Shown here: positions 1,676 to 4,660 of the stretch, piece after piece
How the letters are laid out: each line of letters opens with the position of its first letter
Numbering within the stretch: position 1 is the first letter of the stretch
IMG/VR virus record: IMGVR_UViG_2695420589_000010
Reading direction: 5' to 3' (one strand)
DNA length: 4,660 nucleotides
From: a virus
Lineage: Duplodnaviria > Heunggongvirae > Uroviricota > Caudoviricetes
The notes under the pieces: model-generated
Database searches by the model: none
What the model was told of the DNA's origin: nothing
The model's input: only the letters and a program-made list of their open reading frames with translations
Made by a program: the position numbers and the translations under genes

Positions 1676-2738
1676 AACATTTTTTTCTTCCTGGCGGTAA
1701 CAGGCTCGGGGAGATAAGCATNNNNNNNNNNNNNNGATAAGCATCTGCCGGGCCAACCCGTAATTCAGTCGTCGTGCCCCGGTCGTCCTGGTTATAGGTA
1801 ACTTCTGCGATCACCAGTTCATCATTATCAAAATTATTCAGCGGGTCGAAAACGATGACAGATAACCCCGGACGCCATAACGCGCCACTGCCCTGCCGCC
1901 AGCCCTGAACCGTATATGTTGTCTCACGGGTAAGCGCAGCCCGTTGGCGCGCTTCAAATTCACAACGGGCCTTACAGGTTGCTGTCGTTGCTGTGCCTGA
2001 CTGCTGAATCAACAAAGGGCGATAACGGGTCACGCCACTGTCCTGAATGGTCTGACGTATTGCGGCAATGGTGGCCTCACCAAAATCATCGTCGTTGCCC
2101 GGGCGCTGCCCACTGACCTGATATTCAGAAAACCGCTCTCTGATGCTTCTTTCCGTGTCACAGGAAAGAATATTCTCTCCCAGCACCAGCGCCGTCGCCG
2201 CTTTACCTGTTCCGGGTTTTCCCAGAACCAGTCGCCCGCATTCATCGTCATAAGCCAGCGTCTGAACCTGCCCCAGTAACCGGTTAAGACAATCGGCAAC
2301 GGTTTCGCCGTGTTCCGGCTGGGCATCAATCACCGCTGTCTGCGGCACGCCAGCATCAACAACGGTGATGCCAAATGGCGCAGCCAGTTCACTGACTATT
2401 CTGAGCAGGTTTTTTCCGCTCTGCTGGAGTGGCAAAGCAGAGCAGTCAACCAGATCGGCTGTTTTGCTTCGCCCGACAATTCCCATGCTGACGCTGCTGG
2501 CGTCATAACGAAGCGGTAGTGCCTCCACATATCCGGTGAGCACAGGCTCATCCCCGATAAGCACTTCAACCAGCTCACCATTTTTTATCCGGGGTTGATA
2601 ATCCCGGCTTCCGGGCCAGCGGGTGGTAATGGCAACATTAAAATCCCGGGCAATACGGTTAATGCCCGCACTGATACGGACGGATGTCCAGCCGCCCCAT
2701 TCGCGACCGGAAACCCGAAGTAAAACGGTATCATTCAT
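1674..2738 (-). CDS. Baseplate hub protein, Mu P/gp44-like (phage late control D family)
   Basis: 354-aa ORF. Its start ATG (2738..2736) overlaps the stop TGA (2737..2735) of the upstream DNA circulation gene as ATGA. Size and position between the DNA circulation gene and the gp45-like gene match Mu P. The last ~15 codons lie beyond a 14-nt N-run (1722..1735), so the C-terminus as translated (MLISPSLLPPGRKKC) is not reliable. Confidence 0.75.
   Translation of the reverse strand: MNDTVLLRVSGREWGGWTSVRISAGINRIARDFNVAITTRWPGSRDYQPRIKNGELVEVLIGDEPVLTGYVEALPLRYDASSVSMGIVGRSKTADLVDCSALPLQQSGKNLLRIVSELAAPFGITVVDAGVPQTAVIDAQPEHGETVADCLNRLLGQVQTLAYDDECGRLVLGKPGTGKAATALVLGENILSCDTERSIRERFSEYQVSGQRPGNDDDFGEATIAAIRQTIQDSGVTRYRPLLIQQSGTATTATCKARCEFEARQRAALTRETTYTVQGWRQGSGALWRPGLSVIVFDPLNNFDNDELVIAEVTYNQDDRGTTTELRVGPADAYXXXXXMLISPSLLPPGRKKC
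1713..1744. repeat. 9-bp direct repeat GATAAGCAT flanking the 14-nt masked gap 1722..1735
   Basis: Read directly: 1713..1721 and 1736..1744 are both GATAAGCAT. Most simply explained as a contig-end overlap or duplication artefact at an assembly gap. Confidence 0.85.
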
Positions 2739-4250
2739 CTGACGGGTACCCTTAATGCCCTGACCGGAACAAAGCCCGGATGAGAGATGGCATTTCGATC
2801 CAGGATATCAGTTTCACGGGACGCATCGTCGTACCATGACGCAGCCAGAACAAGCGCAGGCAGAACTTCCGCTGGCGTTCGCTCTGCGGTTTCCTCCGTC
2901 TGAACCAGACGCGCCTGAATATCCCGGTTCAGTTCTGTACGTAATGACGTCAGCTGAAAAAACAGCCTGTCATCCGCCGTACGCCTGAGCTCCTGTTCAA
3001 TCGCCGCGTTCAGCGATTCGCGTATGATGGTGAGATTTTCCCGCGTGGGTGGTTGCGCTCTCTCATCCTGTCCTGTGCTGGCTGCCACGCTGTCAAGTGC
3101 CGGATGAGAAACGTGAATAATATCGGACTGACGTTCAGTGGAACCACCAACAGCCACAACCGCCTGCTGATTTTTCACCAGGCTTCCGGGTTGTGGCAGT
3201 GAAGTGACCGCCCTTGTGGCTTCGCTGATTGCCGTCGTCCGGATGACAGCAGCCACAAGGTTTGTCTGCTGTTTTTGCCTGATAACCGATGCGGAATCTG
3301 TGGGCCACACCGCACGCGGTGCCAGTCCTGGGTCCAGCGTAATGCCGGACATTGTCGTTATGGACTGCACCAGATCCTGTGTGTTATCCACCAGCCGGGT
3401 TCCGGCCCGCCAGGTATCCTGCAACGTATGCACAAAATCACTGGCAACCGACGGCGGCATCAGAATGACGGATAAATCGCCCTGCAGTAGTCTCGCTCCG
3501 GCAGAAACAGCCGAATTAACCATTTTGAAAGCTGTCTGAACGGTNNNNNNNNNNNNNNNNNNNNNNNNNNNNNNNNNNNNNNNNNNNNNTATCGGTCGTC
3601 CGGGCAATAACATCGTTCTGAATAAAGTCCGGTATTCCCGCGAGATCAAAATCGCCGAACATGTCTTCAATCAACTCATCCAGGAATACGGACGACTCCT
3701 CCAGTTTTCTGGCGGTTGCAGCTCCGGCGACNNNNNNNNNNNNNNNNNNNNNNNNNNNNNNNNNNNNNNNNNNNNNNNNNNNNNNNNNNNNNNNNNNNNN
3801 NNNNNNNNNNNNGGCGACCGGAAATGACAGTTCCCCGCTCTCAACAAACTGAAATGAAACCCGGCACATACGGCCTTCAGTGCCGGAGTGAGAAACGGTC
3901 ACCTGCCCGTCAATACAGCCCTGCATTTCACCGAACTGCGGATGGATCAGCGTCCCCGGCCCGGCGGTTTCAATCGCTGTAATCAGCCTGTCGCGCTGCT
4001 CTGCGTAATCATCACCAACGAGATACGCATTAATCGTCAGCCGTCGCGTGGCACGCCCGAGATCTTCCGTGTACGGTTTGTCACGGTTTGGGTATTCATG
4101 GACCTGAACGCGGCGTCCGAACGAACCCTCGTCGCTCTCCACCGAAAACGGAACGCCACGAAATGAAGCGTCGTAAAGATTATCGCGCCAATTGATACCT
4201 GAAGATGCAGAAAAGAGTGAAGAAAGAGAAGGTAAAGAAGGTAAGTCCAT
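2735..4250 (-). CDS. DNA circulation protein (Mu N/gp43-like); reading frame breaks across masked gap 3545..3589
   Basis: The N-terminal ORF (3516..4250) carries the signature I recall for the DNA circulation N-terminal domain: NWRDNLYDASFRGVPFSVES...GRRVQVHEYPNRDKPYTEDLGRATRR...GDDY. ORF 2735..3670 is protein-like only below the gap (TVQTAFKMVNSAVSAGARLLQGD...) and ends ATGA-coupled to the hub gene. Above the gap only the 3516..4250 frame looks coding, so this is one gene with a frame switch inside the N-run. Confidence 0.75.
4227..4244 (-). repeat. Perfect in-frame tandem 9-bp repeat (AGAAGGTAA x2 on +, TTACCTTCT x2 on the coding strand) at codons 3-8 of the DNA circulation gene
   Basis: Read directly: 4227..4235 equals 4236..4244. 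Encodes LPS-LPS within the N-terminal peptide MDLPSLPSLSSLFSASSG, inside a ~50-nt purine-rich (+ strand) tract. Confidence 0.9.
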
Positions 4251-4255
4251 ACTGT

Positions 4256-4259
4256 CTCC
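4256..4259 (-). promoter_or_regulatory. Shine-Dalgarno GGAG for the DNA circulation gene
   Basis: Minus-strand sequence is ATAGTGGAGACAGT-ATG; GGAG lies 5 nt upstream of the ATG at 4250. Confidence 0.5.
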
Positions 4260-4263
4260 ACTA

Positions 4264-4290
4264 TAAAAAAACCGCCAATTTCTGGCGGCT
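4264..4290 (-). terminator. Rho-independent terminator downstream of the AT-rich ORF
   Basis: Minus-strand RNA reads AG-CCGCCA-GAAAU-UGGCGG-UUUUUUU-AUAG: a 6-bp GC-rich stem (plus a possible G-U closing pair), 5-nt loop, and a 7-U tract. It starts 7 nt after the stop codon at 4297..4299. Confidence 0.65.
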
Positions 4291-4296
4291 TATATA

Positions 4297-4660
4297 TTAA
4301 TCATCATTAATATCTTTCATATTCAATTTGCAATTTTCGTAGGTCACTCCCGACTCGCCATTAACATTAACTCCAGCTCTGATATTCCCGTTTTCTTTTA
4401 CATCTACAAAAAACTGGCCTCTTGGCATCTTGAACGCAAATGTAAAACCAACAGTATCTGAATCAAAATCATCATCTTTATATATTGGGATCAAAAATGT
4501 CATCGTCGCTGGTGATGCATTGTTTGCAAAATCAAATACACCTATACTTTTGCCGAATTCATAAGAAGCTTTTCTCAATATAATCGCACCGCTGGCAGAA
4601 GGGGATGGGCACGATATCCTCAGTTGTCTGAATCCATCTGTATCCAAGTCAACGTCATTA
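4297..4660 (-). CDS. Hypothetical protein, 5'-truncated by the window edge; AT-rich accessory (moron-like) gene
   Basis: The frame is open from the window edge to TAA at 4297..4299 (>=121 codons). The TTG 'start' at 4647 in the track is arbitrary; the true start is beyond 4660. Four 60-nt blocks give 33-37% G+C against 52-60% in the tail genes. The translation (...GVFDFANNASPATMTFLIPIYKDDDFDSDTVGFTFAFKMPRGQFFVDVKENGNIRAGVNVNGESGVTYENCKLNMKDINDD) is protein-like and probably beta-rich with an acidic C-terminus; I recognise no family. Confidence 0.55.
   Translation of the reverse strand, partial: NDVDLDTDGFRQLRISCPSPSASGAIILRKASYEFGKSIGVFDFANNASPATMTFLIPIYKDDDFDSDTVGFTFAFKMPRGQFFVDVKENGNIRAGVNVNGESGVTYENCKLNMKDINDD

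Follow-up and report, generated by a model that had tools for sequence, protein, structure and literature searches.

What is the AT-rich reading frame at the edge of this tail module, and what might a gene of such unusual composition be doing directly upstream of the DNA circulation gene? The window (the whole stretch of 4,660 nucleotides that was analysed) comes from a Caudoviricetes record, IMGVR_UViG_2695420589_000010, and a sequence-only reading of it had proposed that the frame is a foreign accessory gene forming its own transcription unit, perhaps one carrying anti-phage defence, superinfection exclusion or host-fitness cargo. We refer to the gene as gene X and to its product as X.

Layout of the window and composition of gene X

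All long open reading frames in the window lie on the minus strand and together make up a Mu-type tail module. Along the plus strand the order is a fragment of baseplate J, gp46, gp45/V, the gp44 hub, the DNA circulation gene and then gene X. The features at the gene X end are as follows:

2735..4250, minus strand: DNA circulation gene (Mu gp43-like), the downstream boundary of the cargo slot
4251..4261, minus strand: ribosome-binding region of the DNA circulation gene, with GGAG at 4259-4256 and ATG at 4250-4248, as read from the sequence
4262..4291, minus strand: terminator-like hairpin with U-tract, AAGCCGCCAGAAATTGGCGGTTT, between gene X and the DNA circulation gene
4297..4660, minus strand: C-terminal part of gene X, codons 41-160 and the stop

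The gene X frame is open from 4659 down to a TAA at 4299-4297, which gives 120 sense codons and a stop, and its first 40 codons, those of the signal peptide included, fall outside the window. G+C is 0.374 at 4297-4660 compared with 0.543 elsewhere in the window, and the change occurs exactly at the intergenic region 4251..4296, where the drop had been placed from the letters alone. In an intact relative (L001, described below) gene X is the G+C minimum across a 24-kb structural region, at 0.369 against a mean of 0.514 (sd 0.04), with only 0.3% of windows in that region being as low, and its third-position G+C is 0.31 compared with 0.55 in both neighbours. The AT-rich frame at 4297..4660 is real and not a chance fluctuation, and the foreign composition ascribed to it holds, being some 15 points below that of its neighbours and the lowest of the 24-kb region.

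The window also contains runs of N at 105-373, 411-790, 1722-1735, 3545-3589 and 3732-3812. These change length relative to near-identical loci: in one example 45 N stand for 8 bases, and at the 81 N of 3732-3812 the flanks overlap by 6 bases in L001. The run at 1722-1735 is bordered on both sides by the 9-mer gataagcat (1713-1721 and 1736-1744). The lengths of frames that span such runs are unreliable, and that of the DNA circulation gene is inflated by the two runs inside it; orthologues of this gene in other loci match Pfam DNA_circ_N. Searches for RNA genes gave only sub-threshold Rfam matches, driven by the hairpin, and no tRNAs.

Recovery of the complete gene

When the final 461 bases of the window were compared with 5426 complete E. 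coli genomes, 11 of these gave a match, with FDAARGOS_944 at 100% identity (NZ_CP065613.1 619339-649799, our locus L001). Extension past position 4660 had been suggested as a way of recovering the whole frame together with its promoter, and this identical locus supplied the full gene, although no promoter came with it:

L001 15098-15580, minus strand: complete gene X, encoding WP_000594909.1, annotated as 'hypothetical protein'

The gene has 160 codons and a GTG start 9 nt after GGAG. In L001 the tape measure gene ends 67 nt upstream of it and the DNA circulation gene starts 46 nt downstream. The next gene upstream, beyond the window, is the tape measure gene, and the sequence-only reading was right to consider the frame distinct from it; the candidate identification of gene X as a tape measure fragment is rejected.

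The L001 prophage is of phiP27 type, with an HK97-type head, a P27-type small terminase and a Mu-type tail. It is itself defective, with copies of ISEc60 splitting the sheath and portal genes and a frameshift in the large terminase, and a frameshifted ipaH effector gene adjoining its tail fibre end suggests a Shigella- or EIEC-like background.

Filled and empty sites

Gene X is optional. In phiP27 both flanks are 96% identical and 581 bp are missing, which leaves an empty site where the tape-measure stop and the DNA-circulation start are 15 nt apart (the spacer 5' of the DNA circulation gene in the window differs from this one). Among the complete E. coli genomes, 11 of 5426 carry the gene and approximately 40 have the flanks without it, and it is also absent from SfIV, ST64B and most of the related loci surveyed. 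The empty phiP27 site and these 40 or so E. coli prophages bear out the proposal of an accessory gene. The differences between filled and empty sites take in the final codons of the tape measure gene as well as the opening codons of the DNA circulation gene, on which ground a recent precise insertion is rejected; this pattern points to an old presence/absence polymorphism that has been moved by recombination in the flanks.

A cargo hotspot between the tape measure and DNA circulation genes

Slot contents were surveyed in IMG/VR loci with relatives of the DNA circulation gene, taken as two sets of which the second is of SfIV/720R4 type. In set 1, 59 of the 73 informative loci were empty, 13 held a member of the X family and one held other cargo (a lipoprotein gene in L043), while set 2, with 74 informative loci, comprised 29 empty sites, 13 with the X family and 32 with other cargo, in the form of three further unrelated genes. 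Across both sets, the site is empty in 88 of the 147 informative loci and filled by other cargo in 33, counts which describe best-matching loci and not population frequencies. The comparison of syntenic prophages, put forward by the earlier reading as a check, thus finds the site empty in some and occupied by different cargo in others. The cargo genes other than X are:

L043 1920-2375: unclassified lipoprotein gene, product starting MKKALIILSCLFCLAGC followed by D, a classical lipoprotein signal peptide with lipobox LAGC and Asp at +2
L143 3452-3946: phrog_8976 gene, product with a Sec signal peptide
L145 3403-3933: phrog_5485 gene, product with an N-terminal membrane anchor
L171 3474-3920, minus strand: phrog_8545 gene, product a membrane-anchored tRNA_anti-like OB fold (PF12869)

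These four genes are mutually unrelated and have 31-37% G+C. When X is included, G+C is 31-39% in the five cargo types compared with 51-58% in the genes around them, and each type begins with an export or anchor signal, be it a signal peptide, a lipobox or a membrane anchor. The cargo of the L171 type matches phrog_8545, annotated 'superinfection exclusion Sie-like', with an E-value of 1.5e-49, and this label is to be read as an annotation only. Judged from their sequences, the accessory genes collected at the tape-measure/DNA-circulation junction are clearly of an envelope-targeted kind, and the hotspot itself is a more interesting result than gene X.

The junction hairpin and transcription of gene X

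The hairpin at 4291-4262 has 9-10 pairs followed by seven U, with a folding energy of -14 kcal/mol (z = -3.3), and 1 of 200 shuffles folded as well. The sequence-only reading took it for the gene's own terminator and for the mark of a separate transcription unit. The hairpin and its U-tract are indeed there, but comparison with other loci does not support their assignment to gene X. At empty sites in two sister lineages there is also a hairpin, and its U-tract and the ribosome-binding site that follows are homologous to those found after X at filled sites, and the lipoprotein gene of L043 is followed by an almost identical stem (CCGCCAGAATCGGCGG vs CCGCCAGAAATTGGCGG). The 15-nt empty site of the phiP27 type is without a junction hairpin. 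Junction hairpins were located at:

L063 3962-3994
L099 3957-3991
L064 3936-3994
L116 2559-2622
L043 2376-2432

Given its homologues at empty sites, the hairpin is, on this comparative evidence, probably a feature of the junction and not of gene X, and it is no proof of a separate transcription unit. Its retention across cargo types suggests that it works as an attenuator within the operon, separating the tube/tape-measure genes from the baseplate genes.

A consensus scan upstream of gene X for sigma-70-like promoters found none, and when the criteria were relaxed the 200 nt preceding the gene in six loci still yielded no convincing promoter; one of a non-consensus kind is possible. In L037 and L064 a mere 16 nt separate the tape-measure stop from the start of gene X, and since the gene lies between that stop and the junction hairpin it is probably co-transcribed with the tape measure gene. 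Two other cargo genes have extended -10-like motifs upstream, seen by eye in the printed spacers, and the minus-strand phrog_8545 cargo must have its own promoter because it lies on the opposite strand.

Morons in the sense of Juhala and Hendrix (criteria taken from PMC3594210) are extra DNA absent from close relatives, with a G+C unlike the surroundings, with their own promoter and terminator and with expression from the repressed prophage. Gene X shows the first two of these features, in its 581 bp relative to phiP27 and its G+C of 0.37 against 0.52-0.55 in the flanks. An own promoter was not found, and the hairpin that lies 3' of the gene has homologues at the empty sites of L063 and L099 and after the L043 cargo.

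Size, range and evolution of the X family

X matches phrog_5586, a group of unknown function, with an E-value of 9.7e-89 (residues 1-160, of 161 profile positions), and all 12 diverse members of the family match this group, which is the family's sole library match. X had no match in Pfam or NCBIfam, the 12 members gave only noise against Pfam at E up to 5, and a search of the anti-phage defence models of PADLOC-DB v2 returned 0 families at E up to 10. We found no description of gene X or of its slot in the literature. The profile and structure searches that had been recommended for the full protein therefore lead to phrog_5586 only, with no significant fold match. The kind of gene to which X belongs is familiar, namely a prophage accessory gene for an envelope protein, while X itself is new and uncharacterised.

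A profile search of 1.8 billion representative proteins returned 17 at E <=0.001, several of which are fragments. Word-indexed protein searches placed X sequences in Shigella, E. coli, Yersinia and Pantoea, and prophages with the gene occur in enteric pathogens, Shigella, STEC and Yersinia among them; this taxonomic range comes from the protein searches, a scan of species-representative genomes having given two loci only. Homologues that are 34-50% identical hold the same slot in at least four diverged tail-module lineages. Set against the tube, chaperone, tape measure and gp43-47 genes, X has nearly always diverged the furthest within the module (36-49% vs 43-89% identity). The dN/dS ratios of close X alleles, at 0.26-0.71, are below 1 but stand against 0.06-0.21 in the flanking genes, and it is because of these ratios, together with the high divergence, that the sequences indicate a real gene under weaker or diversifying constraint. 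In the loci used to compare dS and dN between X and its flanks (L001, L008, L010, L011 and L013), dS among close X alleles was 0.02-0.07, lower than the 0.05-0.15 of the tape measure and DNA circulation genes on either side. The tape measure gene shows only 75% identity in L010 and L013, whereas identity reaches 96% for both X and the DNA circulation gene, which puts the mosaic boundary in these loci upstream of X.

Three distant members, with 24-28% identity, lie outside tail modules in phage-plasmid-like elements:

L004 740-1270: distant X homologue
L005 2919-3413: distant X homologue
L006 1-452: distant X homologue

These elements carry IncFII RepA, ParA, a CI-like repressor and a RecA-dependent nuclease. 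The X homologues within them adjoin HigBA-like or MazEF modules, in what are maintenance/lysogeny regions. Every one of the three is preceded by AT-rich sequence and has a terminator to itself. L004 and L005 have in common an AT-rich motif just upstream of the homologue, ATAAATATTTAAT, which is preceded by TTATTTAA in L005 and by TTATTTTAA in L004. A plasmid DNA search starting from these elements returned a MazEF match only. A further homologue (H71) is located at 186147-186533 of NZ_CP126947.1, a 205-kb conjugative E. coli plasmid from a chicken source, where it presumably lies inside an integrated prophage. As far as the recovered sequences indicate, the X family is phage-restricted and belongs to the accessory regions of phages and phage-plasmids.

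Predicted properties of the X protein

By sequence criteria the N-terminus of X, MIKPFLMTVAILTSCCAQA followed by K, is a signal peptide. It reads MIKPFLMTVAILTSC-CAQA ahead of the K, an equivalent peptide is present in all full-length homologues, and the hydrophobicity maximum in the first 20 residues of the family proteins is 2.1-2.7. We infer from this that X is exported by Sec. The allele found in Shigella, E. coli and Yersinia has a possible lipobox, L-T/I-S-C (L-T-S-C as described for these three), and its product may be lipid-anchored. In other lineages there is no cysteine at the lipobox position and an A-x-A signal peptidase I site precedes the lysine, so that cleavage there would leave a soluble protein.

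The mature protein has about 140 residues and is acidic, with a pI of 4.6. A confident AlphaFold2 model built with 12 diverse sequences (pLDDT 84, pTM 0.78), which superseded an earlier, unusable model from 7 close sequences (pLDDT 49), has a helix at residues 24-41 followed by eight strands that form an up-and-down beta-barrel. The predicted strands and the low pI are in line with the beta-rich and acidic character already noticed in the C-terminal part. Two cysteines, Cys57 in a 'CP' motif and Cys150 in a 'CK' motif, are conserved through the family and are placed in the first and last strands of the predicted barrel, respectively. As these strands neighbour each other in such a barrel, a Cys57-Cys150 disulphide that closes it is probable. 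The eight-stranded barrel, as modelled, is a generic fold. Foldseek searches of BFVD and the PDB with the model gave no match at E <=0.001, and a profile sequence search of the PDB gave chance matches only, at E >=0.1.

Possible function of gene X

Our favoured explanation, to which we would give somewhat less than an even chance, is that gene X is optional cargo encoding an exported protein which blocks superinfecting phages or protects progeny. Gene X occupies, on this account, a recombination hotspot of phiP27/SfIV-type temperate phages, with their HK97-like head and Mu-like contractile tail, and X would be exported via Sec, lipid-anchored or soluble depending on the lineage, to act within the periplasm or at the inner surface of the outer membrane. 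There it might bind a component of the host envelope, or a part of the incoming tail that reaches the periplasm (the tape measure or tail tip), and such binding would block receptor use or genome injection. The outcome would be superinfection exclusion or a lytic-conversion-type protection of the cell and its progeny. What leads us to this explanation is the company X keeps in the slot, the siting of its homologues beside lysogeny genes in phage-plasmid-like elements, its rapid evolution and the precedents of gp15 and Llp discussed below. The envelope-targeted cargo of the slot, with its one Sie-like match, lends indirect support to a role for X in superinfection exclusion or defence, although guilt by location is weak evidence for such a function. 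In Pfam, PHROG, PADLOC and the Foldseek searches of BFVD and the PDB, neither the sequence nor the fold of X led to a characterised exclusion protein. It also counts against exclusion that gene X, for which the scans found no promoter, may be expressed only late with the tail genes and not from the repressed prophage.

Among known systems, the HK97 moron gp15 adjoins the tape measure gene and its product blocks genome entry (Cumby et al. 2012; reviewed in PMC3594210), the injection block being dependent on the tail of the incoming phage (PMC3594210). Both gp15 and X are small accessory genes in the tail operon that adjoin the tape measure gene, differ in composition from their neighbours, are absent from close relatives and have an envelope-directed product, which in the case of X is predicted. 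However, gp15 is a small inner-membrane protein related to YebO, with its own promoter and terminator, whereas X is predicted to be a beta-barrel of about 140 residues that is exported by Sec, and no promoter was detected for it. X also lies on the opposite side of the tape measure gene and has no sequence similarity to gp15, and a function for X would be drawn from it by analogy. T5 Llp is a periplasm-facing lipoprotein with a disulphide, encoded beside the receptor-binding protein gene, that jams FhuA from inside (PMC9586334). The likeness between Llp/Cor and X is that of small phage proteins facing the periplasm, with an intramolecular disulphide (predicted in X), encoded in the tail/host-recognition region, and one X allele has a possible lipobox. 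Llp, with 61 residues, binds the FhuA plug, while X, at over twice that size, is predicted to fold differently. The Cor/Llp group, phrog_1119, was absent from the PHROG matches of X at E up to 10, its match to another slot cargo protein being at the level of the signal peptide only. The phrog_8545 'Sie-like' gene has in common with X the same slot in sister phages, a low G+C and an N-terminal envelope-targeting segment, but it shows no relation to X in sequence or in fold, is encoded on the opposite strand and owes its label to annotation. Two other phage proteins, T4 Spackle (Sp) and TP-J34 Ltp, are exported and halt a superinfecting phage once it has adsorbed: Sp inhibits the tail lysozyme in the periplasm, and Ltp is a lipoprotein that targets the tape measure protein. 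The folds of both are helical, unlike that of X, and the phage groups differ; we know of no sequence relation between X and either of them.

One can take the exclusion proposal further, into a form that we regard as unlikely. The junction would then be a dedicated hotspot at which at least five unrelated envelope-targeted proteins are exchanged, and X would found a new class of exclusion protein, a disulphide-stapled periplasmic barrel which intercepts the tape measure or tail tip of contractile phages or jams a receptor from inside. The conserved terminator would serve as a landing pad at which cargo is swapped without disturbing baseplate expression.

Other roles have to be weighed against exclusion. 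X could be a host-fitness (lysogenic conversion) factor, that is, a small periplasmic or lipid-anchored beta-barrel with a role unconnected to phages, which would bind a ligand or inhibit an enzyme of host origin. Examples would be a lysozyme inhibitor like PliC/MliC or a serum- or stress-resistance protein like lambda Bor, and we consider such a role distinctly improbable. The family has possibly lipid-anchored as well as soluble periplasmic versions, as MliC/PliC do, and its presence in prophages of Shigella, STEC and Yersinia would suit such a role. A partial 'SASG' motif in X would too, but the motif is lost in the distant members. No Pfam family, MliC (PF09864, the PliC/MliC/PhiA lysozyme inhibitors) included, is matched by any of the 12 members even with the threshold relaxed to an E-value of 5, and the motifs of the inhibitor family are not conserved. 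X has an extra N-terminal helix, and its fold match is generic, since avidins, MoaF-like proteins and designed barrels score equally well or better. Membership of X in MliC/PliC is accordingly rejected, there being no profile match and no conservation of the motifs. The wider idea of a host-fitness factor has also to contend with the occurrence of the family in phage contexts only, and with a tail-gene slot that is shared with a Sie-like gene.

The transcriptional setting speaks for a different role, that of a late lytic-cycle helper, transcribed with the tail operon and exported at virion production, which would alter or block an envelope component to keep progeny from being lost on the dying cell or its debris, or would tune lysis, and which would have no function in the lysogen, as T5 Llp is a 'lytic conversion' protein of such a type (PMC9586334). 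Gene X has no promoter found upstream, lies 16 nt from the tape-measure stop in L037 and L064, is on the strand of the tail genes and, with the junction hairpin downstream, is the last gene before it. Yet the distant homologues beside repressor, partition and toxin-antitoxin genes, with their own AT-rich upstream regions and terminators, suggest expression in the carrier state, and gene X is kept intact in defective prophages whose tail genes are destroyed (L118, FDAARGOS_944). We rank this role after that of a host-fitness factor and likewise think it improbable. A conserved tail or assembly component (a chaperone, tail-tip or fibre accessory) is very improbable indeed. The sequence-only reading had named such a component, present at this position in related prophages, as the finding that would overturn it, and gene X does keep its position and strand in at least four diverged tail-module lineages. 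It is, however, absent from phiP27, SfIV and ST64B, with 88 of 147 loci empty and 33 holding other cargo, its G+C is 15 points below that of its neighbours, and its signal peptide would take X out of the cytoplasm, where tails are assembled. A structural or assembly protein of a Mu-type tail is expected in all functional relatives and in the cytoplasm, which describes X in neither respect. As gene X is optional, of low G+C and provided with a signal peptide, its identification as a tail chaperone or fibre is effectively refuted.

If X and the other cargo of the slot are exclusion factors, then the junction would represent a compact and easily searched hotspot in very common prophages of E. coli, Shigella, Salmonella and Yersinia, and the slot would yield several new families of envelope-level anti-phage proteins. 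This would bear on phage-therapy host range in Shigella and STEC and on how contractile tails cross the periplasm. If X is instead a host-fitness factor, it would add one to the lysogenic-conversion genes of enteric pathogens.

IS1 and the copy of gene X in the window

Positions 1-44 of the window are the last 44 bases of IS1 (…CAATAAGTTGGAGTCATTACC), and as these are joined at 44/45 to the inside of the baseplate J (gp47-like) gene, the prophage is truncated or disrupted at this point. The same IS1/baseplate J junction is common to three IMG/VR contigs, of which just one contains gene X. In that contig a complete IS1 of 768 bp splits the gene after approximately codon 37 and is accompanied by a target duplication of 9 bp, CGTTAAAAC. 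The end of this IS1 falls 19 nt past position 4660 of the window, where an IS1 end on the plus strand would read …GGTAATGACTCC. Given this IS1-split gene in the matching contig, the copy in the window is probably a pseudogene in a decayed prophage, a conclusion read from one matching contig, outside the window. A break just upstream had been foreseen as an outcome that would count against the gene; the frame is open to the edge of the window, but it is probably broken beyond it, as it is by IS1 in the only matching contig. The copy in the window is thus most likely an IS1-inactivated remnant, of little importance in itself.

Disrupted and intact copies are both found elsewhere. A 37-residue database protein ending …NVKT-VMLPTY is the N-terminal stump of X read into IS1, and further Shigella fragments of X represent other disruptions. 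The gene is intact in E. coli FDAARGOS_944 and in ten other complete E. coli genomes, and also in S. flexneri SFBU1023, where an IS1 variant has interrupted the DNA circulation gene. The S. flexneri SFBU1023 and E. coli ECMA0423 records have an identical locus (L118/L119 5001-6328). In this locus the DNA circulation gene is cut after 33 nt, the IS1 variant is 91% identical to the IS1 of the window, and gene X has outlived the tail genes.
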